Origin: Heterodontus francisci
Lineage: Eukaryota
Direction of reading: 5' to 3'
DNA length: 64,000 nt
Assembly (NCBI RefSeq): GCF_036365525.1
Contig: NC_090378.1
Coordinates: 25,821,953 to 25,885,952 of the forward strand
Part shown: positions 1,596 to 61,866 of the stretch, in pieces
Layout: the number at the start of each line of letters is the position of its first letter
How positions within the stretch are numbered: position 1 is the stretch's first letter
Position numbers and translations under genes: made by a program
The notes under the pieces: generated by a model
Seen by the model: the letters and a program-made list of their open reading frames with translations, nothing else
Databases searched by the model: none
What the model was told of the DNA's origin: nothing

Positions 1596-4175
1596 AACAC
1601 AAGAAATAGGAGAAGTAGACCATGTGGCCCATCGAGCCTGCTCCACCATTCAATACGATCATGGCTGATCAATTCCACTTTCCTGCCCGCTCCCCATATC
1701 CCCAGATTCCCTGTGAAACCAAAAATCTATCTATCCCAGCCTTAAATGTATTCAATGATGGAGCATCTACAACCCTCTGGGTTAGAGGATTCCAAAGATT
1801 CACAACCCTTTGAGTGAACTAATTTCTCCTCATCTCAGTCCTGAATGATCCGCCCCTTATCATGAGACTGTTTCCCCGTGTTTTAGATTCTCTGACCAGT
1901 GGGAACAATCTCTCAGCTTCTGCCCTATCAAGCCCTTTCCGCATCTTGTATGGTTCAATTAGATCGCCTCTCATTCTTTTAAACTCCAGAGCATACAAGC
2001 CCAATTTACTCAGCCTCTCATAAGACAACCCCCTCATCCCAGGGACCAATTTAGTAAATCTTTGCTGCACCGCCTCCAGTGCAAGAATATCCTTTCTTAA
2101 TTGTGGAGACCAAAACTGCATACAGTATTCCAGGTGCGGTCTCTCCAAAGCCCTGTATAATTTTCGTAAGACTTCTTTATTCCTGTACTCCAGTTCCCTT
2201 GCAATAAAGGCCATCATGCCATTTGCCTTCCTCAAAGCCTACTGCACCTGCAGGTTAACTTTGTGCATTCCTTGTACGTGTACCTCCAAGTCTCTCTGTA
2301 CATCAACACCTTTCAACAGTTTCACACCTTTTAAAAAATATTCTGCTTTTTTACTTTTACAACCAAAGTGAACAACTTCACACTTCCCTGTATTATACTC
2401 CATTTGCCATCTTGTTGCCCACTCACTTAGCCTGTCTATATCTCTTTGCAGCCTTTCTACGTCCTCCCCACAGCTTACCTTTCCACCGAGCTTTGTATCA
2501 TCAGCAGACTTCGATACATTACTCTGTCTCTTCATCCAACTCATTAACAGAGTGCAAATAGCTGAGGCCTCAGCACTGATCCTTGCCGCATTCACTGCCT
2601 GCCAACTTGAAAATGCCCCATTTATGCCCACTCTCTGTTTCCTGTCTGTAAACCAATCCTATATTCAAGCTAATATATTACCCCCAACACCATGAGCCCT
2701 TATCTTGCCTATTAATCTTTTATGCAGCAACTTATCGAATGCCTTTTGGAAATCCAGGTATACTACATCCTTCTTTGGGCCTGCTTATCTCGAGAGACAA
2801 TGGATAAGCGCCTGGAGGTGGTCAGTGGCTTGTGAAGCAGCGCCTGGAGTGGCTATAAAGGCCAATTCTAGAGTGACAGGCTCTTCCACAGGTGCTGCAG
2901 AGAAATTTGTTTGTCGGGGCTGTTGCACAGTTGGCTCTCCCCTCGCGCCTCTGTCTTTTTTCCTGCCAATTACTAAGTCTCTTCGACTCGCCACATTTTA
3001 GCCCTGTCTTTATGGCTGCCCGCCAGCTCTGGCGAATGCTGGCAACTGACTCCCACGACTTGTGATCAATGTCACAGGATTTCATGTCGCGTTTGCAGAA
3101 GTCTTTATAGCGGAGACATGGACGGCCGGTGGGTCTGATACCAGTGGCGTGCTCGCTGTACAATGTGTCTTTGGGGATCCTGCCATCTTCCATGCAGCTC
3201 ACATGGCCAAGCCATCTCAAGCGCCGCTGACTCAGTAGTGTACACAAGCTGGGGATGTTGGCCGCCTCGAGGACTTCTGTGTTGGAGATACGGTCCTGCC
3301 ACCTGATGCCAAGTATTCTCCGGAGGCAGCGAAGATGGAATGAATTGAGACGTCGCTCTTGGCTGACATACGTTGTCCAGGCCTCGCTGCCATAGAGCAA
3401 GGTACCGAGGACACAGGCCTGATACACTCGGACTTTTGCGTTCCGTGTCAGTACGCCATTTTACCACACTCTCTTGGCCAGTCTGGACGTAGCAGTGGAA
3501 GCCTTACCCATGCGCTTGTTGATTTCTGCATCTAGAGACAGGTTACTGGTGATAGTTGAGCCTAGGTAGGTGAACTCTTGAACCACTTCCAGAGCGTGGT
3601 CGCCAATATTGATGGATGGAGCATTTCTGACGTCCTGCCCCATGATGTTTGTTTTCTTGAGGCTGATGGTTAGGCCAAATTCATTGCATCCACATTCCCT
3701 TTATCTACCCTACTAGTTACATCCTCAAAAAACTCTAATAAATTTGTCAAACAGGATCTCCCTTTAGTAAAACCATGCTGACTTGTTCTAATCATACTAT
3801 GCTTTTCCAAGTACAATGTTAAGACTTCTTTAATAGTAGCTCCCAGCAACTGATGTTAGGCTAACCGGCCTGTAGTTCCATGTTTTCTCTCTACCTTCTT
3901 TCTTGAAAAGCTGTGTAACATTTGCCAACTTCCAAACTGACAGGACCATTCCTGAATCTAAGGAATTCTGGAAAATCATAGCCAGCGCATATCTGCAGCT
4001 ATTTCTTTTAGAACCAGAGATGTAGGTCATCTGGTCCTGGGGACTTGTCAGATTTTAGTCCCTCAAGTTTCTCCAACACTTTTTCTTGGCTGACATTAAT
4101 TTCCTTAATCTTCTCACTCCTTTTAGCCCCTAGGTTACTGCCTGTTTCTGGTATGGAACTTGTGTCTTCTACTGT
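1596..4175 (-). mobile_element. CR1 (HER1-like) LINE, 5'-truncated and decayed, split by an RTE insertion
   Basis: RT/C-terminal fragments SADDTKLGG, RPHLEYCMQFWSP and NYRPVSLTSV; the CR1 sequence resumes at about 3687 after the RTE. Confidence 0.9.
2771..3686 (-). mobile_element. RTE-clade LINE 3' portion
   Basis: ORFs 3461-3643 (FTYLGSTI..EINKRMGKA) and 2822-3427 (LLYGSEAWT...RRLRWLGHV...CSTCGRACHSRIGLYSH), typical of the RTE C-terminus; catcc flanks both sides. Confidence 0.9.
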
Positions 4176-14899: not shown

Positions 14900-17800
14900 A
14901 AATAGAAAATAGGAGGAGTAGGCCATTTGGCCCTTCGAGCCTGTTCCGCCATTCATTATGAACATGGCTGATCATCCAACTCAGTAGCCTGTTCCCGCTT
15001 CCGCCCCATACCCTTTGATCCTTTAGACCCAAGAACCAAATCTAACTCCTTCTTGAAAACACACAGTGTTTTGGCCTCAACTGCTTTCTGTAGTAGCGAA
15101 TTGCACGGGCTCACCACTCTCTAGGTGAAGAAATTTCTCCTCATCTCAGTCCTGAAAAGTTTACCCCCGCATCCTTAGACTATGACCCCTGGTTCAGGAC
15201 TCCCCCACCATCGTGAACATCCTTCCTGCATCTACCCTGTCAAGTCCTGTTAGAATTTTATAGGTTTCTATGAGATCCCCCCTCAATCTTCTGAACTCCA
15301 GCGAATATAATCCTAACTGACTCAATCTCTCCTCATACGTCAGTCCCGCCATCCCAGTATTCAGTCTGGTAAACCTTCGCTGCACTCCCTCTGTAGCAAA
15401 AACATCCTTCCTCAGATAAGGCGACCAAAACGGCACACGATATTCCAGGTGTGGCCTCACCAAGGCCCTGTATAATTGCAGCATGACAACCTTGCTCCTG
15501 TACTCGAATCCTCTTGCTATGAAGGCCAACATACCATTTGCCTTTTTTACCGCCTGTTGGACCTGCATGCTTACCTTCAGCGACTGGTGTACGAGAACAC
15601 CCAAGTCTCTCTGTATATTCCCTTCTCTCAGTTTATAGCCATTTAGATAATAATCTGCCTTCCTGTTTTTGCGACCAAAGTGGATAACCTCACATTTAGC
15701 CACATTATACTGCATTTGCCATGCATTAGCCCACTCACTCAACTTGTCCAGATCACCCTGAAGCCTCTCTGCATCCTCCTCACAACTCACCCTCCCACCC
15801 AGTTTTGTCTCATCTACAAATTTGGAGATATTACATTTAGTTCCCTCATCTAAATCATTAATATATATTGTGAATAGCTGGGGTCCTCGCACCAATCCCG
15901 GTGGTACCCGCTAGTCACTGCCTGTCATTCGGAAAAAGACCCATTTATCCCTACGCTTTGTTTCCTGTCTGCCAACCAATTTCTATCCATCACAATACAC
16001 TACCTCCAATCCCATGTGCTTTAATTTTACACGCTAATCTCTTATGTGGGACTTTGTCAAAAGCCTTCTGAAAGTCCAAATAAACCACATCCAATGGCTC
16101 CCCCTCATCAACTCTACGAGTTACATCCTCGAAGAATTCTAGTAGATTTGTCAAACATGATTTCCCTTTTGTAAATCCATGCTGACTCTGTCCGATTCTA
16201 CCACTGTCCTCCAAGTGCTCTGCTGTAAAATCTTTGATAATGGACTCTAGAATTTTCCCCATTATTGACGTCAAGCTGACTGGTCTATTATTCCCTGCTT
16301 TCTCTCTATCTCCCTTTTTAAATAGTGGGGTTACTTTAGCTACCCTCCAATCTGTAGGAACTGTTCCAGAGTCTGTAGAATCTTGGAAGATGACCACCAA
16401 TGCATCCACTATTTTTAGGGCCACTTCCTTAAGTACTCTGGGATGCAGACCATCAGGCCCTAGGGATTTATCAGCCTTCAATCCCATTAATTTCCCCAAC
16501 ACCATTTCTCTATTAATACTAATTTCCTTCAGTTCCTCTTTCTCACTAAGCCCTGTGTTCCCCAACATTTCTGGGATGATATTTGTGTCCTCCTTTGTGA
16601 AGAAAGAACCAAAGTATGCATTTAGTTGGTCAGCCATTTCTTTGTTCCCCATAATAAATTCCCGTTTCTGACTGTAAGGGACCCACATTTGTCTTCACCA
16701 ATCTTTTTCTTTTCACATACCTAAAGAAACGTTTACAGTCAGTTTTTATGTTCCCCGCAAGCTTGCTCTCATACTCTATTTTCCCCTTCTTAATCAATCC
16801 CTGGTCCTCCTTTGCCGAATTCTAAACTGCTCCCAATCCTCAGGTCTGTTGTTTTTCTTGGCAAATTTCTTGGCCTCTTCCTTGGATCTAATGCTATCAC
16901 TAATTTCCCTTGTAAGGCATGGTTTGGCTACCTTTCTCATTTTACTTTTGCGCCAGACAGGGATAAACAATTGTTGCGGTTTATTCATGCGCTCTTTAAA
17001 TGTTTGCCATTGCGTATCCACCATCATCCCTTTAAGTAAGGTTTCCCAATCTGTCATGGCCAACTTGCGCCTCATACCTTCGTAGTTTCCTTTACTAAGA
17101 TTCAGGACTCTAGTCTCAGAATCAACTACGTCACTCTCCATCTTGATGAAGAATTCTATCATATCATGGTCGCTCATCCCCAAGGGGTCTCTGCACCACT
17201 AGATTTTCAATTATTCCTCTCTCATTACATAATACCCAATATAGGATGGCCTGTTCTCTAGTTGGTTCCTCAACATATTGGTCCAGAGAAACATCCCGTA
17301 TACACCCCAAGCATTCATCCTCTACGGTATTGTGACTAATTTGATTTGCCCAATCTATCTGCAGATTAGAGTCATCCATAATTACAGATGTTCCTTTATC
17401 GCATGCGGATCTAATTTCCTGTTCAATGCCATTCCCAACATCACCACTACAGTTTGGGGGTCTATATACAACCCCCACTAACGTTTTTTGCCCCTTAGTG
17501 TTTCTCAGCTCTACCCAAACAGATTCCACATCGTCAGAGCCAATACCTTTCCTCACTATTGCGTTAATTTCCTCTTTAACCAGCAATGCAACTCCACCAC
17601 CTTTTACTTTTTGTCTGACCTTCCTAAATACTGAATACCTCTGGATGTTTATTTTCCTGGTCACCTTGCAGCCATGTCAACTATATCACACCCGTTTACA
17701 TCTATTTGTGCGATTAATTCATCCACTTTATTGCGAATGCTCCGCGTGTTAAAGCACAAAGTCTTAAGGCTTGTCTTTTTAACATTATTTGTCCCCTTCC

Positions 17801-18574: not shown

Positions 18575-18643
18575 TTACAGAGAATTAGCTTAGGCATCTG
18601 GATTACTAGTCCAGTAACATTACCACTATGCCACCATCTCCCC
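18575..18643 (-). mobile_element. tRNA-like head fragment of the SINE/LINE family at 19620 and 32339
   Basis: Reverse complement ggagatggtggcatagtggtaatgttactggactagtaatccag matches 32341-32380. Confidence 0.7.
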
Positions 18644-19486: not shown

Positions 19487-19617
19487 TGAACCATTAAAAT
19501 AAAACAGCAAACAGTTTAACATCTCGTTGGAAATAAATTAAAACAAGGGAAAGCTGGTAATAAAGGAAAGGTTAGGACCTTCAGAAGAGGAGATTAAATT
19601 CCAAAATAAAAGTGGAG

Positions 19618-20040
19618 GGGTATGATAGCAGAGTGGTTACGTTACTAGATTAGTAACCTAGTGGCCTGGACTAATGACTTGGAGATATGAGTTCAAATCC
19701 CACCATATCAGTTAGGGAATTTAAATTCAATTAATTAAATAAAATCTGTAATAAAAAGCTCAGATCAGTAATGGTGACCATGAAACTACCAGATTATGGT
19801 AACAATTAATTTGGTTCACTAATATCCTTTAGGGAAGGAAATCTGCTGTCCTTTTCTGGTCTGTGACATGTGACTCTGGCCCACAGCGATATGGTTGACG
19901 CCTAACTGCCCTCTGAAATGGCCTAGCAAGTCACTCAGTTGCCTTCAAGGTGGCGGCTCACCCCTGCCTTCTCAAGGGTAGTAAGGGATGGACAATAAAT
20001 GTCTTACCAGTGATGCCCACATCCAGTGAATGAATAAAAG
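19618..20040 (+). mobile_element. tRNA-headed SINE sharing its 5' ~310 bp and 3' ~100 bp with the LINE at 32339-35259
   Basis: A box TAGCAGAGTGG (19626), B box GAGTTCAAATCC (19689); body matches 32341-32655 and tail matches 35155-35250; ends tgaatgaataaa. Confidence 0.85.
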
Positions 20041-20189: not shown

Positions 20190-20890
20190 TTAAGTCAGAA
20201 GGTTGAGTTTCGAGAGATACAGCACTGAAACAGGCCCTTCAGCCCACCGAGTCTGTGCCGACCATCAACCACACATTTATACTAATCCTACACTAATCTC
20301 ATAGTCCTACCACATCCCCACCTGTCCCTATATTTCCCTACCACCTACCTATACTCGGGGCAATTTATAATGGCCAATTAACCTATCAACCTGCAAGTCT
20401 TTTTGCTGTGGGAGGAAACCGGAGCACCCGGAGGAAACCCACGCAGACACAGGGAGAACTCGCAAACTCCACACAGGCAGTACCCGGATTTGAACCCGGG
20501 TCGCTGGAGCTGTGAGGCTGCAGTACTAACCACTGCGCCACTGTGCCGCCCCAAAGGTTGATTAAGCCCCACTAGGGACTTAAGTACTCAAACAAGACTG
20601 AAACATCAGAGAGAGGGTGGCATTGTTGGAGGTGCTACCTTTATGATGGAACATTAAACAGAGACCCTGTCTGCTAAAGATTCCACGGCACCTTTTCCAA
20701 AGACGAGCAGGGAGATCTGGTGCTCTGGCCAACAATTATCCCTCAACCAATGTCATCAAAACGAATGAACTGGTCATTTACCTCCTTGCTGTTTGTGGGA
20801 GCTTCCGACATACAAACTGCTGTGTTTGCCTGCTAAACATGTGGCCATACTTCAAAAGAACAGCATTATATAAATGCAAGGCTTTTCTTT
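20190..20890 (+). mobile_element. SacSINE1-type SINE interrupted by an HE1 SINE
   Basis: agtcagaaggttg head split by the HE1 insertion with aaggttga duplicated; Deu-type body follows. Confidence 0.7.
20213..20552 (-). mobile_element. HE1-type V-SINE
   Basis: Highly similar to 19131-19486. Confidence 0.9.
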
Positions 20891-20931: not shown

Positions 20932-22325
20932 AACAAAGAACAGTACAGCACAGAAACAGGCCATTCGGCCCTCCAAGCCTGCGCCGATCTTGATGCTTGC
21001 CTAAACTAAAACCTTCTGCACTTCCGGGGACCGCATCCCTCTATTCCCATCCTATTCATGTATTTGTCAAGATGCCTCTTAAACGTCGCTATCGTACCTG
21101 CTTCCACCACCTACCCCGGCAGCAAGTTCCAGGCACTCACCACCCTCTGTGGAAAGAACTTGCCTCACACATCCCCTCTAAACTTTGCTCCTCTCACCTT
21201 AAATCTATGTCCTCTAGTAACTGACTCTTCCACCCTGGGAAAAAGCTTCTGACTATTCACTCTGTCCATGCCGCTCATAACTTTGTAAACCTCTATCATG
21301 TCGCCCCTCTACCTCCGTCGTTCCAGTGAAAACAATCCGAGTTTATCCAATCTCTCCTCATAGCTAATGCCCTCCAGACCAGGCAACATCCTGGTAAACC
21401 TCTTCTGTACCCTCTCCAAAGCCTCCACGTCCTTCTGGTAGTGTGGCGACCAGAATTGCACGCAATATTCTAAGTGTGGCCTAACTAAAGTTCTGTACAG
21501 CTGCAGCATGACTTGCCAATTTTTATACTCTATGCCCCGACCAATGAAGGCAAGCATGCCGTATGCCTTCTTGACTACCTTATCCACTTGCGTTGCCACT
21601 ATCAATGACCTGTGGACCTGTACGCCCAGATCTCTCTGCCTGTCAATACTCCTAAGGGTTCTGCCATTTACTGTATACCTCCCACCTGCATTAGACCTTC
21701 CAAAATGCATTACCTCACATTTGTCCGGATTAAATTCCATCTGCCATTTCTCCGCCCAAGTCTCCAACCGATTTATATCCTGCTGTATCCTCTGACAATC
21801 CTCATCACTGTCCGCAACCCCACCAACCTTTGTGTCGTCCGCAAACTTACTAATCAGACCAGCTACATTTTCCTCCAAATCATTTATAAATACTACAAAC
21901 AACAAAGGTCCCAGCACTGATCCCTGCGGAACACCACTAATCACATCCCTCCATTCAGAAAAGCACCCTTCCACTGCTACCCTCTGTCTTCTATGACTGA
22001 GCCAGTTCTGTATCCATCTTGCCAGCTCACCTCTGATCCCGTGTGACTTCACCTTTTGTACCAGTCTGCCATGAGGGACCTTGTCAAAGGCTTTACTGAA
22101 GTCCATATAGATAACATCCACTGCCCTTCCTTCATCAATCATCGTTGTCACTTCCTCAAAAAACTCGATCAAGTTAGTGAGACACGACCTCCCCTTCACA
22201 AAACCATGCTGCCTCTCGCTAATAAGTTCGTTTGTTTTCAAATGGGAGTAAATCCTGGCCCGAAGAATCCTCTCCAATAATTTCCCTACCACTGACTAAG
22301 GCTCACCGGCCGATAATTTCCTGGA
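20932..22325 (-). mobile_element. Young 5'-truncated CR1 LINE with a 327-aa open RT
   Basis: YMDFSKAFDKV, SGVPQGSVLGP and FADDTK motifs; 3' UTR ends in a (TTCTTTG/TTC) tail. Confidence 0.95.
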
Positions 22326-22354
22326 TTTTATCGTTTTCTCTTTATATATTTCCC

Positions 22355-31369: not shown

Positions 31370-32108
31370 CGACTGCAATAGGACATAGATAGGTTAGCAG
31401 AATGGGCAGACAAGTGGCAACTGGAATTTCATAAAGAGAAATGTGAGGTGATGCATTTTGGCTGAAGGGATAGGCAGAGGCAATACAGACTTAATGGCAC
31501 AAAGAGTTTTAAAGAGTGTGCAGGGACAGACGGATCTGGCGGTGCATGTGCATAGATCTTTGAAAGCGACAGGACATACTGACAGAGTGGTTAGTATCGC
31601 TGAACATTGATAAAGCTCTGGTTAGGCCACAACTAGATTACTCTGTCCAGTTCTGGTCACTACACTTTAGGAAGGATGTGAAGGTCCTTGAGAGGATGTA
31701 GAGGAGATTTACCAGAATGGTTCCAGGGATGAGGGATTTTAGCGACAAGGTTAGGTTGGAGCAAAGGAGATTGAGGGGAATTTCATAGAGGTGGACAAGA
31801 TTATGAAAGGTGGACAAAGAAAAGCTGTTCCCATTAGCTGATGGTATAAGGACTAGGGAACACAGATTGAAGTTTTGGGTAGGAGATGCAGGGGAGATGT
31901 GAGGAAGAACTTGTTTTATGCAGCGGGTGATAATGACCTGGAACTCACTGCCCAAGAGGATGGTGGAAGCGGAGACAATCAATGATTTCAAAAGGAAATT
32001 GGATGGGCACTTGAGGGAAATAAACTTGCAGGGCTACAGGGATAGAGCGGGGGATATGGGACTGACCGGATTTCTCTATGGTGAGCCAGCATAGAGTCGA
32101 TGGGCCAC
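31370..32108 (+). mobile_element. Decayed CR1 LINE 3' part
   Basis: gaatgggcagacaagtggca...tgtgaggtgatgcattttgg...gtccagttctggtcac...; CR1 3' UTR. Confidence 0.8.
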
Positions 32109-32338
32109 AAATGACTATGACATGTTTGGGCTGGGGGTAGACACTGACCCAGAAGGATTGTGCTCTTGATCTCTATCAGAAGATCATGCTGGGATTGACA
32201 CAGAAAAGTGACAAAAGTTGCAAATTGGAAAAAGGAAGAAAAAATTGTTGGAAATACACAGCCTTTGAAAAAAGGCAGGTTGACACTTCAGCCAGAGTCC
32301 CTTGATCAGAATTCCTGCTGGAAGAAGTGTGTACGTGT

Positions 32339-35259
32339 AGGCGGTGGCGTAGTGGTATTATCATTGGACTAGTAACCCGGAGACCCAGGGTATTTATCTG
32401 GGGACATGGGGTCGAATCCCACCACAGCAGAAGGTGGAATTTGAATTTAATTAATAAATCTGGAATTAAAAGCTAGTCTAATGATGGCCATGAAACCATT
32501 GTCGATTGTTCTAAAAACCCATCTGGTTCACTAATGTCCTTTAGGGAAGGAAATCTGCTGTCCTTACCTGGTCTGGCCTACATGTGACTCCAGACCCACA
32601 GCAATGTGGTTAACTCTTACATGCCCTCTGAAATGGCCTAGCAAGCCACTCAGTTGTACCTAACCGCTACGAAGTCAATAAAAAGAAATGAAACCAAACG
32701 GACCACCCGGCATTGACTAAGGCAACGGAAACGACAACGGCAAACCCAGCCCTGTCGACCCTGCAAAGTCCTCCTCACTAACATCTGGGGGCTTGTGCCA
32801 AAATTGGGAGAGCTGTCCCACAGACTAGTCAAGCAACAGCCTGACATAGTCATACTCACGGAATCATTCCTTACAGACAATGTCCCAGACACTGCCATCA
32901 CCATCCCCGGGTATGTCCTGTCCCATCGGCAGGACAGACTCAGCAGAGGTGGTGGCACAGTGGTATACTGTAGGGAGGGAGTTGCTCTGGGAGTCCTCAA
33001 CATCGACTCCGGACCACATGAAGTCTCATGGCATCAAGTCAAACATGGGCACGGTAACCTCCTACTGATTACCACCTACTGCCCTCCCTCAGCTGATGAG
33101 TCAGTACTCCTCCATGTTGAACACCAATTGGAGGAAGCACTGAGGGTAGCAAGGGCACAAATGTACTCTGGGTGGGGGACTTCAATGTCCATCAGCAGCA
33201 GCAGAATTGTACTCAACCACAATCTGTAACCTCATGGCCCGGCATATACCCCACTCTATCATTACCATCAAGCCAGGAGACCAACCCTGGTTCAATGAAG
33301 AGTGCAGGAGAGCATGCCAGGAGCAGCACCAGGCATACCTCAAAATGAAGTGCCAACCTGGTGAAGCTACAACCCAAGACTACTTGCATGCCAAACTGCG
33401 TAAGCGGCATGCGACAGAGCTAATCGATCCCATAACCAACGGATCAGATCTAAGCTCTGCAGTCCTGCCACATCCAGCCGTGAATGGTGGTGGACAATTA
33501 AACAACTAACTGAAGGAGGTGGCTCCACAAATATCCCCATCCTCAATGATGGGGGAGCCCAGCACATCAGTGCGAAAGATAAGGCTGAAGCATTTGCAAC
33601 AATCTTCAGCCAGAAGTGCCGAGTTGACGATCCATCTCGGCCTCCTCCTGAAGTCCCCAACATCACAGATGCCAGACTTCAGCCAATTCGACTCACTCCG
33701 CATGATATCAAGAAACGACTGAAGGCACTGAATATTGCAAAAGCCATGGGCCGACAATATTCCGGCAATAGTACTGAAGACCTGTGCTCCAGAACTTGCC
33801 ATGCCCCTAGCCAAGCTCCAACACTGGCATCTACCCTGCAATGTGGAAAATTGCCCAGGTATGTCCTGTACACAAAAAGCAGGACAAGTCCAACCTGGCC
33901 AATTACCGCCCCATCAGCCTACTCTCAATCATCAGAAAAGTGATGGAAGGTGTCATCAAGCAGCACTTGCTTAGCAATAACCTGCTCAGTGACACTCAGT
34001 TTGGGTTCGGCCAGGGCCACTCAGCTCCTGACCTCATTACAGCCTTGGTTCAAACATGGACAAAAGAGCAGAACTCAAGAGGTGAGGTGAGACTGACTAC
34101 CCTTGACATCAAGGTAGCATTTGACCGAGTATGGAATCAAGGAGCCCTAGCAAAACTGAAGTCAATGGGAATCAGGGGGAAAACCCTCCGCTGGCTGGAA
34201 TCATACATAGCGCAAAGGAAGATGGTTGTGGTTGTTGGAGGTCAATCATCTGAGCTCCAAGACATCACTGCAGTAGTTCCTCAGGGTAGTGTCCTAGGCC
34301 CAACCATCTTCAGCTGCTTCATCAATGACCTTCCTTCAATCATAAGGTCAGAAGTAGGGATGTTCGCTGATGATTGCACAATGTTCAGCACCATTCGTGA
34401 CTCCTCAGATGCTGAAGCAGTCAGTGTAGAAATGCAGCAAGACCTGGACAATATCCAGGCTTGGGCTGAGAAGTGGCAAGTAACATTCGCACCACACAAG
34501 TGCCAGGCAATGACCATCTCCAACAAGAGAGAATCTAACCATCTCCCATTGACATTCAACAGCATTACCATTGCTGAATCCCCCACTATCAGCATCCTAG
34601 GGGCTACCATTGACTAGAAACTGAACTGGAGTAGCCATATAAATCCCGTGGCTACAAGAGCAGGTCAGAGGCTTGGAATCCTGAGGTGAGTAACTCACCT
34701 CCTGACTCCCCAAAGCCTGTCCACCATCTACAAGGCACAAGTCAGGAGTGTGATGGAATACTCTCCACTTGCCTGGATGGGTGCAGCTTTAACAACACTC
34801 AAGAAGCTCGACACCATCCAGGACAAAGCAGCCCGCTTGATTGGCACCCTATCTACAAACATTCACTCCCTCCACCACCACACAGTGGCAGCAGTGTGTA
34901 CCATCGACAAGATGCACTGCAGCAATGCTCCAAGGCTCCTTAGACAGCACCTTCCAAACCCGCGACCTCTACCAACTAGAAGGACAAGGGCAGCAAATAC
35001 ATGTCAACACCACCACCTGCAAGTTCCCCTCCAAGTCACACACCATCCTGACTTGGAACTACATCGCCGTTCCTTCACTGTCGCTGGGTCAAAATCCTGA
35101 AGTCCCTTCCTAACAGCACTGTGGATATACCTACCCCAAATGGATTGCAGCGGTTCAAGAAGGCAGCTCACCACCACCTTCTCAAGGGCAATTAGGGATG
35201 GGCAATAAATGCTGGCCTGGCCAGTGACGCCCACATCTCATGAATGAATTAAAAAAAAA
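32339..35259 (+). mobile_element. ORF2-only LINE (CR1/L2-group APE-RT) with a tRNA-like Pol III promoter head; decayed copy
   Basis: A box TGGCGTAGTGG 32345-32355 and B-box-like GGGTCGAATCC 32409-32419; APE motifs VLLTNIWGL, PDIVILTES and GGGTVVY; RT motifs NYRPISLLS, LDIKVAFDRVW, VPQGSVLGP and FADD; tail tgaatgaatt(A)9; TSD-like tacgtgt/tacgcgt. Confidence 0.88.
32345..32419 (+). promoter_or_regulatory. Putative type-2 Pol III internal promoter (A box + B box)
   Basis: A box fits TRGCNNARYGG exactly; B box is one mismatch from GGTTCGAATCC, and the sister SINE has an intact GTTCAAATCC. Confidence 0.7.
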
Positions 35260-35504
35260 TACGCGTGGAGGTCGGATAAAGGGTTGAGCCGTGATGCCCC
35301 CTCAATGTTCAAATAAACGGCTAGTAGCTCAGTGTCAAAACTCTCAGATAGAGAATGGTTACTGGGGTGAGGTAGTGAAGAGCTGCTGGCTGCCATGATA
35401 CCATGGTCTAGTATCAGTCAGCAGGGAGAAAAGAAAACAATAGTACACTTAATTTTATAGTCTTGCCCCACACAAAGCATCTCTAAAGACAAGCAATAGT
35501 TTAT

Positions 35505-45416: not shown

Positions 45417-47474
45417 CCTTTTGCTTTGCTTCTCTTATTAGTATACCAATTTTAATGACAGCCACCAAAAACTTCACAATCATGGAGGACTTCTGCTTCT
45501 AGTTCTGTGGTCTTCACTTCATTGTGTAATTTATTCAAGCTGGAGTCTCTATTTGCACTTTTTATGTCTGTCAGAACTACGACTGCAAGAAAGTCCTCTT
45601 TCACTAACGGCGGGTCTTCCTCCGTATTGTGATTGTTTTCCGACGCAAGAGTCAGTTCCAGACCCACTTTTAGAACTTGCACTGCGCTTCCTTATTCTAC
45701 ACTCTTTCACCCCATTTGCCAGTCCATGGACCTCACCTCTTGGCCATCCTCCTGAACATTCAACCAATATTTAAACTTGCCGGTAGCTTTCTCTGCACGT
45801 CCCACAATTGTCGCATCCCTCCATTCACTACACCTCTCTGGAATATGTCACCCAAGTACCCACTCTGGGCAATTGGCCTGCGGATGTGATATATTTGTCC
45901 TGCGGATGTGATATATTTGTCCTGTGTGACATGATCACTCACGTTATTACCATCCAGCCCTTGATCTACTGTATTCTGTTGCTCAGGACCTTCATGACAA
46001 AACACGGAGCACTTGAGGTATAAGGTGCCTTGTTTACTTCCATCAGCTGCTCAGAGTTCGAGATTTTATAATGAATTACGATTAATCGTGAGGATGAACC
46101 TTAACAGTTTGATCGCCATATTTGATAACTACTGTCTTATTATCATGACCTTTCCATTCTCTATGACCCATTTTCTTATAATACAGTAAATCTCCTGCAT
46201 TAAATTCTGTCCTAGATAGTTTTAAACTATGCATCAGAGCTCTGAATTTTCTCAGACCTCAGCTTTGATGAGAGCCCATCTCCCTGCATGTAAAGCATTA
46301 AAATGTGCAGGAAAAAAATGGAACTATAGTGCCTTCTAGAGCAGGTACAGCCACAGAAGGCAATTTGGGATTTTGCCCATAGACCAATTGATAGGGACTA
46401 CACCCTCCAACCATCTGAGTGAATTCTTTGCATGAACCACCTGTGCCAGTGGGGTTGTCAACATGCAGTCTGATTGAGCATGTAAAATTTTATGCGGCAT
46501 TTCATCAACCACCACAAGATTCCTTTCACACAGCCCACTGCTGAAAGGACTTTCAGTTGCAGTACTCATGACCCTGATGTTCATGTTTTCACATATCTCT
46601 GAACTCATCATTAGCAAATTCCCCTCCATTGGGAATCAGAAACTTAGCTGGTGCCCCAAGTTTAGTCCCTATCCATTCCTCCATGATTTTTTTATAATCA
46701 CGCTTACCAAGTATTATTACAAAAAGACTAAATCTGGTTGCCAAGTCTACAAAATGTACAAATGAAAATATCTGCCTTTATCCCATACCTTTAGAACCAC
46801 GGCAACTACCTAGTTAAAGTCACATGCCAATGAAAGGCTTACAAGATGTGGCGACATCCTCTGATACCTTTTACAGATTTCACACTTCTCACTAATGTCG
46901 GTTAGCTTTGTATACTCTTCATCAACCACACCCGCATCGTTCAGCAAGATTTTAAAGCTCTGACAAGTAGGGTGAACAAATTGTATATGTAATTTTAAGA
47001 CAATTTGGTTTTTTTTCTCTGACTCTTAGCACTGGATGCCATTAATACTTGTCTAACACTCTGATGAGAAACATCAGTTTTTGTTATGGGGATGCAATAA
47101 TGTCCTGACTGGGTCAGATCCACTGACTTTCCAAAAATAATTGCATTATCATTCTCCATGTCAAGTTTCATTTGTGCCTTTATCAAAGAATATTTACTCA
47201 ACAGCAAAGGTATTTCACTAGAGACTAGATCAGTACTGATAAAGTGGCTTACTCTAGCTATTTTACATGGAATTACAACTCCGTTTAGTGACCGCAGTGT
47301 GTTGTCATCACCAAACCTAAAGCAAGTAGTGCTTTTATTTTCTTTAACCTTGCAGCGATCCTCACTACTCAATGAATCAAAGTAACATTTTAACCAATCT
47401 GTCCCACATACTGTTGAAGTGCAAGCACCATCTAGCACTGTACAGTTAAATGAGTCCACAAACAACACATTCAT

Positions 47475-47678
47475 AGAAAATGCTGGAAATGCTCAGGTCA
47501 GACAGCATCTGTGGGGAGTAAAACAGAGTTAACATTTCAGTTCTGCTGATCTTGAAAGGTCACAGGAACCAGAAACTGTTTCTCTCGCCACAGATGCTGT
47601 CTAACCTGGAGTATTTCCAGCATTTTCTGTGGTTTGTTTCAGATTTCCAGCATCCGCATAATTTTGCTTTTGTATTGA
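47475..47678. mobile_element. Two inverted Penelope pLTR remnants inside the copia element
   Basis: gaaaatgctggaaat..gcatctgtgg..gagttaac followed by its inverse cacagatgctg...ttccagcatccgca; aacacattcat is repeated on both sides. Confidence 0.7.
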
Positions 47679-49725
47679 AGAACACATTCATCACAGGATT
47701 AAAACTCCTTGTGACCAGTATTATTTGTTCAAATTATCATCAACCTTCTCCTCAGAATTCTCTGTCATGTATCATTTTGAGGACCCTGCCTCTCCATTTT
47801 GGGCAGTTTATTGCACAATGATACTTTGAGTCACACCTGAAGTGCCTATGAGCTGTCCCTTGGGCATTCACCTATTATTGCTGTTCCAATTCTGTCTTCT
47901 GCTGTCATACCCAGATCTGCTAAAGGTGCTTTCATCCTCATTCTGCCTTTCTTTAATCCTTCCATTGTACTGATGCCTGCCTCAAGTATCTGGACCATTT
48001 TGAAATCTGGCAACCCTAGAGTCCTCTCTTCTTTGTGTCACTGTGGAATGTCCCATTTGTTCCACGAAGGCTGAAGAAAATGACTATTTCCCCAGTACTC
48101 TTTCCAAGGCAGCAGACATCTGATCCAACAGGGTCTCCCTCTCAGAGAACTGAACACCAGGTAGACCCAGAAACCTGTCCATATGCAACATCTTAACACA
48201 ATCCACCAATTTAACCTGTTGTATAAAAGATTGATGAAATTCAATCTGTTAAAGTCCATGATATATTTCGCCATGGAATGACCAACTGTTTTCCGAAATC
48301 TGTCAAATTTTAACCATGCCTCATAGGCATTTAATAGATCTTCTTTCTTGTAAATTTCATCCAAGAGCTCTAACAGAAGATCCAAACTTTCACCAGTATC
48401 CAACTGACGGGCATCCAGCTCACTAAATACTTTACTGCCGATTTTACTTTTTGTAAGAAACGACAATGCCAAGATCATATCTTGTTTTCTCTTTGGTAGA
48501 GATGTAACCAGTGCCCACATATCCACTTAATTCTCCCACTGGTCATATGGTTCAGACTCCGAGAACATTGGATGGTAATCATATCCCGACAATTTATACT
48601 TGCTTTCCGCCATTTCTCACAATGGCGATTAGGATTGGAGTTTACTCTGATTTTTTTTTCTTAGCTTCCAGCCTTCACTTTTACACAACCATTCTCTGCT
48701 ACCATGTTCTATTCCAGAAAACCAGTTGGTGAAGGATAGAGCTGGAGCCAATCTTTCCACGCTTTAATATTTATTTCAGAGTTACATATTGCAAGCATAC
48801 AATTCCTAACCCAGCAACCGGTTTCAGATTGTATCTGTTTATAGGGCTCAAGTAAATCCCCACTTAATGGCCATCATCTGCATACAATTAAACACAATTA
48901 ATATTCAAATAACACTCAGCTCCTGTCCTACAGTTGATGGGATAAAATAAAATGATTTTGGGCCAGGTTTCAGCTAGGTGTGCATGAATGAATTCATGGC
49001 TAAAAAGTGTGGTCAAAAAACACACACGGTCATATTTTTAATTCCACTTTCCCTAACTACATGCTTCACCTCAGCTATTCTGGCATTCCACCTTTGTAGC
49101 GATTCGGCACTAGAATGATCACATTGCCCTCGTCTAGTAGATATTTCCCCTACTGCTGCCCAAATTTGTAGAAGATATTTTATAGTCCAAAATGAAAACT
49201 AAACTGATGTCCAGACTCCTCTCCTTACATGGATATGGCTCTGGTTACGATTTGTTTTTTTTTGGAGATAAAGATTTTGATTATGACAGGTCTGACCGAT
49301 ATACCTCATTTCAGTTCAGGCTCTCTCCCAAAACTCTTCACTTGCGTACACAGAGCACAGACACAGTTTCCATAAATTGACCCTGGTCTCCTATGAAATG
49401 AAATTTGTTCCCTTATATACTGGTATGAATGGGGCAAAATGTTTAATATTTACCTTTCCTAAAGTATCTTTCACTAGATATGATGTGGTTTTCTCACTAC
49501 ATTCGTGAGCCCACACTGAAACACACTATTCTGGCAGCCCACCATGTACAGGCAAAACTCAATCAGTTAAATTTATTTGCAAAAAAATTATAGAGACAGA
49601 TGAATATAGCAACCAACCTTCAGTGTGATTATTTGACTCATACAATGATTAAACTCTTCTCTAAAAGAAGTTAAAAATCTAAATTGAAACTGTATAGAAA
49701 GAACCAAGTCTCTGTCGGTACATAT

Positions 49726-54969: not shown

Positions 54970-56435
54970 AGTGTCAGTTGTAGCTCAATTGGTAGCTCTC
55001 ACCTGAGTCAAGTCCAGGACTTGAGCACAAAAAAAAAATCTAGGCTGACAGTCCAGTGCAGTACTGAGCGAGTAATGCATTGTTGGATGCGCCGTCTTTC
55101 GGATGAGACGCTAAACCATGGCTCTCCCTGCCCTCTCAGGTAGACACAAAAGATCTCATGGCACTATTTTGAAGAACAAAGAACAGTACAGCTCAGGAAC
55201 AGGCCATTCGGCCCTCCAAGCCTGTGCCGATCTTGATGCCTGCCTAAACTAACACCTTCTGCACTCCCAGGACCCATATCCCTCTATTCCCATCCTATTC
55301 GTATATTTGTCAAGATGTCTCAAACGTCGCTATCGTATCTGCTTCCACCACCTCCCCCGGCAGCAAGTTCCAGGCACTCACCACCCTCTGTGTAAAAAAC
55401 TTGCCTCGCACATCCCCTCTAAACTTTGCCCCTCTCACCTTAAACCTATGTCCCCTAGCAACTGACTCTTTCACCCTGGGAAAAAGCTTCTGACTATTCA
55501 CTCTGTCCATGCCGCTCATAACTTTGTAAACCTCTATCATGTCGCCCCTCCACCTCCGTCGCTCCAGTGAAAACAATCCGAGTTTTTCCAACCTCTCCTC
55601 ATAGTTAATGCCCTCCAGACCAGGCAACATCCTGGTAAACCTCCTCTGTACCCTCTCCAAAGCCTCCACGTCCTTCTGGTAGTGTGGCGACCAGAATTGC
55701 ACGCAATATTCTAAGTGTGGCCTAACTAAGGTTCTGTACAGCTGCAACATGACTTGCCTATTTTTATACTCTATGCCCCGACCGATGAAGGCAAGCATGC
55801 CGTATGCCTTCTTGACTACCTTATCCACCTGCGTTGCCACTTTCAATGACCTGTGGACCTGTACGCCCAGATCTCTCTGCCTGTCAATACTCCTAAGGGT
55901 TCTGCCATTTACTGTATACCTCCCACCTGCATTGGACCTTCCAAAATGCATTACCTCACATTTGTCCGGATTAAACTCCATCTGCCATTTCTCTGCCCAA
56001 GTCTCCAACCAATCTATATCCTGCTGTATCCTCTGACAATCCTCATCACTGTCCGCAACCCCACCAACCTTTGTGTCGTCCGCAAACTTACTAATCAGAC
56101 CAACTACATTTTCCTCCAAATCATTTATATAAACTACAAACAGCAAAAGTCCCAGCACTGATCCCTGCGGAACACCACTAGTCACATCCCTCCATTCAGA
56201 AAAACACCCATCCACTGATACCCTGAGGGGTTATCCTCAGTGTCCTGGCCTATATTTATCCCTCAATCAACATCACAGAAACAGGCAATCTTGTCATTAT
56301 CACATTGTTGTGGGAGCTTGCTGTGCGTAAATTGGCTACTGCAATTCCTACAAGAGTGACTATACTTCATTGGCTACAATCTGCTTTGGAACGTCCTGAG
56401 GTCATGAAAGGCACGATATAAATGCAAGTGTTTCT
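54970..56435 (+). mobile_element. SacSINE1-type SINE split by a CR1 insertion
   Basis: Head 54970-55175 and tail 56225-56435 are collinear with 22355-22770. Confidence 0.8.
55175..56224 (-). mobile_element. Young 5'-truncated CR1 LINE with a 301-aa open RT C-terminus
   Basis: Near-identical to 20932-21980. Confidence 0.95.
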
Positions 56436-60919: not shown

Positions 60920-61260
60920 AACAGTTTGAAGGGAAAAACTGTTCCCACTCGCGAAAGGATCGAGAACAAGAGGACACAGATTTAAAGCGATTGGCAAAAG
61001 AAGCAAAAGCAACATGAGGAAAACTTTCTTCACGCAGCGAGTGGTTAGGATTGGAATGGGCTGCCTGGGAGCGTGACGGAGGCAGGTTCAAATCGAGGCA
61101 TTCAAAAGGGAATTAGACTATTATCTGAAAAGCAGGAATGTGCAGGGTTAGGGGGAGAAGGCAGGGGAATGACATTAGGTGAACTGCTCATCCTGAGAGC
61201 CGGTGCAGACATGATGGGCTGAATGGCCTCCTTCTGTGCGGTAACAATTCTGTGGTTCTG
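60920..61260 (+). mobile_element. CR1 3' end nested in the Gypsy element
   Basis: ctttcttcacgcagcgagtggttagga...gatgggctgaatggcctccttctgtgc. Confidence 0.75.
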
Positions 61261-61866
61261 TGAAGTGGGGTTTTAGATGTGTAAGGATAGAGCTTTTTGA
61301 CACATTTTCGAGGTGAGAACTTGATTCTCTTCATCTTCAGTTCCTCCCACAGTGCTCTACTGATGACATTACTGTCACTGCCTGAATCTATAATAATGCT
61401 CACTTCAACACCCCCAACAATCACTGGAACTTGCTCATGATTGTGCCCATCGACAGAAAACATGCACCCATGATTGCTATTCGTGTCCATACTCACCGTA
61501 TCTTCAACTCGTCTCACAGTTGTACTACTTTCAACTCTCTTTCCTTTACATGGTTTGCCAGGCTTTCCACTCTGTTCAGCTTTGCTTCTGCACTTCTTAG
61601 CAAAATGGTCTCTGCCCCCACATTTTCTGCACATCTTTCCCTTGGCAGGGCAGCAATCATCTCTTCCACAGTGCCCCAAGTTGCCACATCTGAAACACTC
61701 TCTCGCAGACTTCTGTTGTTTACATTTATACGTACCTGGATTCCGTTGTGTCACTCATTAACCTCCGATTTTGTTGTGCCGATGGCGGAAATGGGACCAA
61801 GTTTCATGCTGTGAACTTGTCCATCCATTGCTTCCAATGCAGCCGCTATCTTCAAAGTGTCATCCA

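Follow-up and report, generated by a model that had tools for sequence, protein, structure and literature searches.

We analysed a 64,000-nucleotide stretch of the Heterodontus francisci genome (NCBI RefSeq assembly GCF_036365525.1, contig NC_090378.1, forward-strand positions 25,821,953 to 25,885,952; below, the window). The locus at 32335-35259 of the window is the degraded remnant of one member of an abundant and long-lived family of long interspersed nuclear elements (LINEs) that joins the tRNA-derived head of a short interspersed nuclear element (SINE) to a single frame encoding an apurinic/apyrimidinic endonuclease (APE) and a reverse transcriptase (RT). By its protein, its ends and its pattern of selection, the family is an APE-type LINE of the CR1/L2 group without the first open reading frame (ORF1). 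It is SINE-like at its 5' end yet fails the definition of a SINE, being 3.27 kb long and carrying an ORF under selection. We propose that RNA polymerase III (Pol III) transcribes the family from this head, and weigh this below against transcription by Pol II.

A tRNA-derived head joined to an APE-RT frame

A preliminary description of the window had taken this locus for an element of ~2.9 kb, bounded by a pair of repeats resembling target-site duplications (TSDs), that passes from a tRNA-like promoter straight into APE-RT. The window copy does run from the head into APE motif I at 32768 and on into an RT domain, and it has no ORF1. Its A box, TGGCGTAGTGG, is as claimed; the B box is present but departs from the state of most copies by a T>G change at 32411. 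The proposed boundaries stand in part. A 7-bp near-TSD (TACGTGT/TACGCGT) brackets the copy, with an A tail at 35251-35259, but ~330 bp of a full length of ~3.27 kb is missing and the first nucleotides overlap the near-TSD or are lost: given the family 5' end, GGG(T/G)AGGCGG, the copy either lacks 4 nt behind the near-TSD or starts at 32335. The copy is dead, with several frameshifts and stops in addition to the endonuclease deletion, and its APE piece has no Pfam match at 1e-3. Run on the window, ARAGORN called nothing and Rfam gave chance matches only, so that neither recognised the head.

We searched the 6.0-Gb genome for the junction between head and ORF. The search returned 1246 candidates, and the best 40, which were scored, were all 95-100% identical. 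Thirty of the 39 other copies fetched begin within 7 nt of a common 5' end and lie in unrelated flanks. A second search was independent of the junction and used the endonuclease protein alone as query (102,802 first-look candidates, best 150 scored, 29 loci opened). The common 5' end was found in 17 of these 29 copies; the other 12 are cut at positions 32 to 431, with differing flanks, and four of them are cut at 343-354. None of the 29 has another 5' untranslated region (UTR) or an ORF1, as judged from 25 nt of inspected sequence and further BLAST pieces. When an old copy served as query, nine copies 72-80% identical to a young copy were recovered, each with head or body continuing into the endonuclease, and one further copy from random sampling has head or body leading into APE as well. 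A foreign RT of 48% identity led to the family in all 12 loci opened, out of 122 scored. The idea of a chance SINE beside a truncated LINE is thus rejected: the junction recurs, the 5' end is common, old subfamilies have the same arrangement and the copies found through the endonuclease agree.

In 20 arbitrary 10-kb stretches, counted by hand, the family makes up ~10.4 kb, or ~5% of the 200 kb sampled; 10 of the 20 stretches match it, with about 10 ORF-bearing and 5 SINE-like pieces. Its ends are of LINE type, with 5' truncation, an A-rich 3' end and short or absent TSDs. With one mismatch allowed, 11 of the 26 full-length copies are flanked by TSD-like pairs of at least 7 nt, where mismatched pairs give a chance rate of 12%; many of these TSD-like pairs overlap the A tail. 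Pfam recognizes the endonuclease (PF14529/PF03372) and the RT in a natural copy (L033), and the RT is 31-38% identical to that of CR1 copies in the same genome. Four natural near-intact, full-length copies (L195-L198) combine the head with frames of 705-941 amino acids and contain no run of four T (T4); in L196, the frame is open for 941 amino acids up to the natural stop. No fully intact copy was seen, and non-CpG sites of the young copies show ~3% divergence. A search of the PDB gave ORF2 structures of L1 and R2 only, and two distant loci at 33% from a metagenome scan were not used.

Four rows were left out of the counts: L097 (a duplicate of L095), L099 (wrong piece chained), and the pair L029 and L082 (either duplicated or lacking the junction). 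A further three copies, of intermediate type, were treated separately, and L155 was unreadable in the SINE table. L095 and L097 (G000:C43) are near-identical with the 3' third inverted, and similar matches cluster on their contig, which suggests segmental duplication. It is common for a young copy to sit within or next to an older one of the family (L058, L059, L099, L104).

The head aligns to tRNA-Thr(AGT) genes of the same genome called by ARAGORN, with an insert of ~20 nt before the T arm, and none of 1000 shuffles aligned as well; these genes were located with a pattern taken from the head, so that the match is partly by construction. Seven of the nine pattern matches were element copies without the insert that continue into the ORF, and two of these seven were called tRNA by ARAGORN. 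In such copies (L204-L207, L209, L211 and L212), the absence of ~20 nt of the head restores the tRNA spacing and is a source of false tRNA annotation. Both boxes are retained in old and young subfamilies, the commonest B box being GGTTCGAATCC (26 of 69 aligned copies that cover it). The body of ~250 nt that follows, which we take to be Deu-domain-like, is the most conserved non-coding part of the element, with 7 old-versus-young differences in the 161 columns of its core against 20 in 111 for the leader ahead of the ORF. The first 445 nt of one copy fold with z=-3.15, from which no structure is claimed.

A selected frame without an AUG start

As a yardstick for the ORF, we took the commonest base per column among 76 young copies. 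In this column-majority sequence, the frame is open for 975 codons past an ATG-GCC-TAG mini-ORF, and APE and RT lie in one ORF. Non-CpG singleton variants are neutral (471 synonymous, 1394 nonsynonymous or stop; ratio of nonsynonymous to synonymous rates, pN/pS, 0.92). However, non-CpG variants present in at least six copies comprise 50 synonymous, 32 nonsynonymous and no stop changes (pN/pS 0.20; Fisher P 3e-11). Old and young subfamilies differ by 54 synonymous and 26 nonsynonymous changes in 479 codons, a ratio of 0.14, against 1.7 and 2.1 in the other frames. The shared variants and the differences between subfamilies have thus been under purifying selection, and the lineage that bears the head retained a functional protein during its divergence. 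This pattern of substitution supports autonomy of the head-bearing element. The suggestion in the preliminary description of a 'SINE that encodes its own RT' is partly supported, in that the unit recurs and its protein is selected; that the ORF has no AUG start had been overlooked.

The first methionine of the ORF2 frame is at codon 287, ten ATGs lie upstream and there is no usable AUG start. Between the mini-ORF and the APE domain lies a leader whose length is 126 nt in 63 of the 72 young copies and in 7 of the 9 old ones, and this fixed length suggests that translation enters upstream of it. The late in-frame AUG could also be expected if the head-bearing form were a passenger, that is, a non-autonomous chimera copied in trans by an unseen ORF1-bearing LINE, with its ORF untranslated. 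That no fully intact copy was seen, with young copies diverged as stated above, would fit such a passenger, as would the fact that the loci opened were the best-scoring of more than 100,000 candidates. It is opposed by the mostly synonymous nature of the changes that head-bearing copies share and of those that separate the old from the young among them, by the 975-codon frame that is continuous in the yardstick, and by the failure of both the 29 endonuclease-ascertained copies and the distant-homologue search to give an alternative 5' end. We consider the passenger explanation very improbable.

Two candidate features of the leader were considered. Its TAG codon is open (GAG or CAG) in 14 of 70 young copies, but these are scattered over the tree, the change shows no linkage to most other variants, and mutation at other CCTAG sites is up to as frequent (15/75 and 13/61); an autonomous sub-lineage is rejected in favour of a CTAG mutation hotspot. 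A 46-amino-acid upstream ORF (uORF) in the +1 frame is not favoured as a mini-ORF1 or a frameshift start, its ATG being absent from most old copies and its frame unconstrained. Across 14 CTAG sites in the aligned young copies, T changes to G or C in 8.7% against 2.4% for other T, and A changes in 6.8% against 2.0%. Judged from these alignments, the excess is a hotspot of non-CpG mutation or RT error.

T-run depletion and the transcribing polymerase

The preliminary description had reported that the sense strand of the window copy holds no run of four or more T (T4+). Over 32340-35260, we count no T4+, 8 TTT and 14 A4+, and the longest T4-free stretch on either strand of the window is 31914-35452. 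For a single copy, this absence is marginal or weak (probability of zero 0.0095 with mononucleotide and 0.117 with dinucleotide shuffles). The contrast that had been drawn with CR1 copies of the window holds in that they carry sense-strand T4, but one of them has a T4-free sense stretch of 1852 nt.

We compared the ORF of the family with 2000 shufflings of its own synonymous codons. It has 4 runs of three or more T against 12.9 expected; none of the shuffles went this low, and each of the four runs is a Phe codon. Runs of A, C and G are at expectation, so the depletion is of T only and on the coding strand only. Five-mers with at least four T number 1 against 10.7 expected (P 0.0025). Codon junctions of T with T (T|T) number 6 against 25.8 expected, or against 18.6 under a CpG-aware null in which T|A and T|C are not depleted, and they are likewise depleted in the old subfamily (11 against 26.8). 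The signal resides in TTT and TT rather than in T4. Avoidance of splice acceptors or poly(A) signals is not supported as its cause, since neither pyrimidine tracts nor poly(A) signals show depletion.

Thirty-six near-full copies (114 kb) contain 13 T4 against 491 A4; a recurrent T4 near position 1140 is the product of CpG decay (10 copies), and 7 T4 lie at the 3' end. In-frame T4 in the family amounts to 0.05 per kb (observed/expected ratio, O/E, 0.05), as compared with 0.9 in RTE elements of the same genome at equal T content (O/E 0.66; this group counts one locus twice, L008/L037), 2.2 and 3.9 in two CR1 groups (O/E 0.56 and 0.85) and 3.8 in Penelope. The T|T O/E is 0.23 in the family and 0.66-1.02 in the controls. 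T-runs thus lie below both the codon-shuffled null and other LINEs.

The element starts where the SINE starts, both of its boxes have been kept, and only T-runs, on the coding strand alone, are depleted; for these reasons we favour transcription by Pol III, driven by the A and B boxes of the head, and regard it as probable. Under this proposal, TFIIIC and TFIIIB would bind at the boxes, Pol III would start at the common GGG 5' end, and read-through of 3.3 kb would be permitted by the removal of terminator-like T-runs by selection. Termination would occur at the T-run that precedes the A tail in some copies or at the next T-run in the flank, like Alu. Translation of the uncapped RNA would start internally or at a non-AUG codon close to where the body ends, or else by re-initiation past ATG-GCC-TAG; of all the steps, this one is the least certain. 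The 3' tail would next be bound by ORF2p, which would insert the RNA through target-primed reverse transcription, so that each full-length copy would carry its promoter, and the ~390-bp SINE would be mobilised in trans. Translation of L1 ORF2 is AUG-independent (PMC11485995). For the full combination, a protein-coding, self-replicating Pol III transcript (an 'autonomous SINE') with a T-run-purged ORF, cap- and AUG-free translation and the Deu-type body as ribosome entry, we put the chances at about even, and the same joint estimate extends to its having been among the main repeats of the lineage through several subfamilies.

Several observations weigh against this proposal. At the family level, the absence of T4 is itself non-significant (0 against 2.2 expected, P=0.076; 0 against 1.5, P=0.19), as is that of TNTTT from the ORF (0 against 2.0, P=0.083). 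Other LINEs are mildly depleted too (T4 O/E 0.56 in one CR1 group, T|T O/E 0.66 in RTE). The copies are related by descent, so that the T-run comparison involves about two lineages, and the controls are RTE, CR1 and Penelope with no headless sister family. Between the boxes, 32 of 56 young heads contain TATTT, where all seven old copies that cover the site have G; TATTT is a moderate terminator that ends 42-50% of transcripts in mammalian assays (PMC8466645). Most copies are without a terminator of their own: of 35 element 3' ends listed, 7 have no T before the A tail, 17 have one T and, by the pattern applied, 6 have T4 or more. Pol III RNA is uncapped, which makes translation hard (PMC11485995). 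The leader shows no amino-acid constraint (ratio 0.96). RNA-type data comprised 23 runs from at least eight organism codes, all of them assembled contigs and most only guessed to be RNA; in the four runs compared, contigs cover the head, the junction, the ORF and the SINE joint, without strand, 5' start or level.

The non-significance of T4 alone, the mild depletion in other LINEs and the TATTT in the youngest heads would suit an autonomous LINE whose SINE-derived 5' UTR is transcribed by Pol II, with the head or body providing the promoter for Pol II and the low T content of the ORF reflecting inherited clade composition. LINEs are generally Pol II transcripts (PMC5786205), and a cap would ease translation. 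However, the 5' end is the same as that of the SINE, 10 nt ahead of the A box, both boxes persist across subfamilies, and the T- and strand-specific depletion is far stronger than in the controls. The ten upstream AUGs would block cap-dependent scanning regardless. On balance, we think Pol II transcription unlikely.

If the Pol III proposal is true, it breaks the working rule that LINEs are Pol II-transcribed and coding and SINEs Pol III-transcribed and non-coding, and it provides a natural translated Pol III transcript in a vertebrate. Two questions become testable, namely the role of deeply conserved SINE bodies, here directly ahead of an AUG-less ORF, and their origin. For annotation, repeat libraries would split head-plus-ORF copies into a SINE and a truncated LINE.

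The free SINE, neighbouring repeats and known systems

The preliminary description was right about a tRNA-like head on a LINE but had overlooked that a free SINE consists of the head and tail of the same element. This SINE (361-410 bp with its tail, ~390 bp) is the head and body of the element joined to its last ~70 nt. A single junction region, with ~1 nt of microhomology, is found across ages in the 24 readable loci of 25 opened. Among 22 SINE heads, four resemble the young LINE head at 95-96%, and in three of those the tail is young as well. Most likely, template switching gave a LINE the head of its partner SINE, and the 5' UTR and ORF1 that the LINE had before were lost. The reverse order, compatible with either polymerase, would make the coding element ancestral, the body its 5' UTR and the SINE a product of internal deletion. 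It accounts for a SINE composed exactly of head plus tail and for the young-like heads and tails, and an origin of SINE bodies from LINE 5' UTRs has been proposed (Kojima 2018). However, a single junction region across ages with ~1 nt of microhomology fits end exchange better than repeated deletion, and Deu-type SINEs from cnidarians to amniotes differ in their tails (PMC4824008). We regard the reverse order as doubtful, though a real contender.

Table 1. Features of the element locus and of a second SINE copy in the window
Feature	Position	Strand	Basis or remark
Left copy of possible 7-bp TSD (TACGTGT)	32332..32338	+	Overlaps the place where the first 4 nt of the family would lie
tRNA-Thr(AGT)-derived head from the family 5' end, ~20-nt insertion between anticodon arm and T arm	32335..32430	+	Alignment to ARAGORN-called tRNA-Thr genes
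A box	32345..32355	+	Commonest state in 32/60 copies covering the site
Anticodon-loop remnant CTAGTAA (AGT)	32369..32375	+	
TATTT, possible moderate Pol III terminator, youngest subfamily only	32391..32395	+	PMC8466645
B box (T>G at 32411 in window copy)	32409..32419	+	
Conserved non-coding body, common to free SINE	32431..32654	+	
ATG-GCC-TAG mini-ORF, in frame with ORF2; long frame opens past TAG	32633..32641	+	
126-nt leader, Arg-rich in ORF2 frame; contains 46-amino-acid +1-frame uORF (ATG 32688)	32642..32767	+	
APE endonuclease, 5' part; frameshift near 33159, ~330-bp deletion at ~33190-33197	32768..33197	+	Pfam on copy L033
RT domain, FADD at 34363-34374	33877..34608	+	Pfam RVT_1, E 1.2e-35
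ORF2 C-terminal part, family stop 35193-35195; stops and frameshifts in window copy	34609..35195	+	
3' tail common to free SINE; AATAAA at 35204; end ATGAATGAA-T(0-6)-A(n)	35183..35259	+	
Right copy of possible TSD (TACGCGT)	35260..35266	+	
Old free SINE, an independent copy of this family; 76% identity over head and body, tail directly attached	19616..20035	+	

The window holds several other repeats, all on the reverse strand. The segment 28171-30721 has a 616-amino-acid open frame and a 247-amino-acid GIY-YIG-like frame and is, we presume from its motifs, a Penelope-like element. CR1 copies of at least two subfamilies, used as controls, lie at 15194-17676, 21309-22342 and 55310-56230; a CR1 RT piece gave 745,308 first-look candidates in the genome. 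An RTE-like LINE is at 2269-3460, and elsewhere a 2.4-kb RTE-like copy with a 765-amino-acid frame is inserted in a copy of the family (L037). Fragments at 61188-61754 and 46995-48526 resemble gag/protease regions of long terminal repeat (LTR) retrotransposons, and further short heads with an A box or both boxes at 18578-18635 and 20496-20540 are probably SINE fragments.

LINEs without ORF1 and with a single ORF include R2, ZfL2-2, UnaL2 and RTE. As is proposed for this family, R2 relies on a polymerase other than Pol II (Pol I) and on initiation of a non-canonical kind, but it uses the host rDNA promoter and an endonuclease of a different type. None of these LINEs is known to carry its own Pol III promoter. 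A literature search, with most subscription journals, Repbase Reports and Dfam outside its reach, found neither a Pol III-driven nor a SINE-headed autonomous LINE described; given its abundance, the family probably has a consensus in repeat libraries.

The free SINE fits the DeuSINE layout of a tRNA head, a conserved body of ~250 nt and a LINE-shared tail, and we take it to be SacSINE1. SacSINE1 is described as a non-autonomous tRNA/Deu SINE that has only its tail in common with L2-2_CM (PMC5499810), and its partner LINE is entered as CR1-4_DR-like (PMC3747384). SacSINE1 and LmeSINE1, of sharks, chimaera and coelacanth, resemble the free SINE in having a tRNA head with A and B boxes, a conserved body, a LINE-shared tail and a length of ~400 bp (PMC5499810). 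They are described as sharing only the 3' tail with a LINE, whereas here the head and body are also the 5' end of a coding element. The partner LINEs L2-2_CM and CR1-4_DR-like are likewise CR1/L2-group APE-RT elements that supply a SINE tail (PMC5499810, PMC3747384). The available parts of these papers mention no SINE-derived 5' end, and the Repbase entries may already hold this head.

Bov-A and Bov-tA from Bov-B, and SINE2-1_ACar from Vingi-2_ACar, are also SINEs built from the 5' and 3' ends of an ORF1-less partner (PMC4494074, PMC5786205). In those systems, only the non-coding derivative has the tRNA head, and the LINE is considered a Pol II transcript; here the coding element bears the head. 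SINEs are held to be unable to encode protein (PMC5786205). The 3' end recalls T+ SINEs such as B2, which likewise have AATAAA, a variable T-run (T0-T6 here) and a short A tail (PMC8466645); those are non-coding and short, and the T-run variation here may be slippage, so that this is a resemblance only. Small-RNA sequence is also fused 5' of a LINE in chimeric tRNA/L1 and U6/L1 insertions (PMC13174262). Those are rare one-offs, with 21 tRNA cases that are mostly antisense halves, whereas the head of this family is in the sense orientation, promoter-complete and present in many copies and subfamilies.

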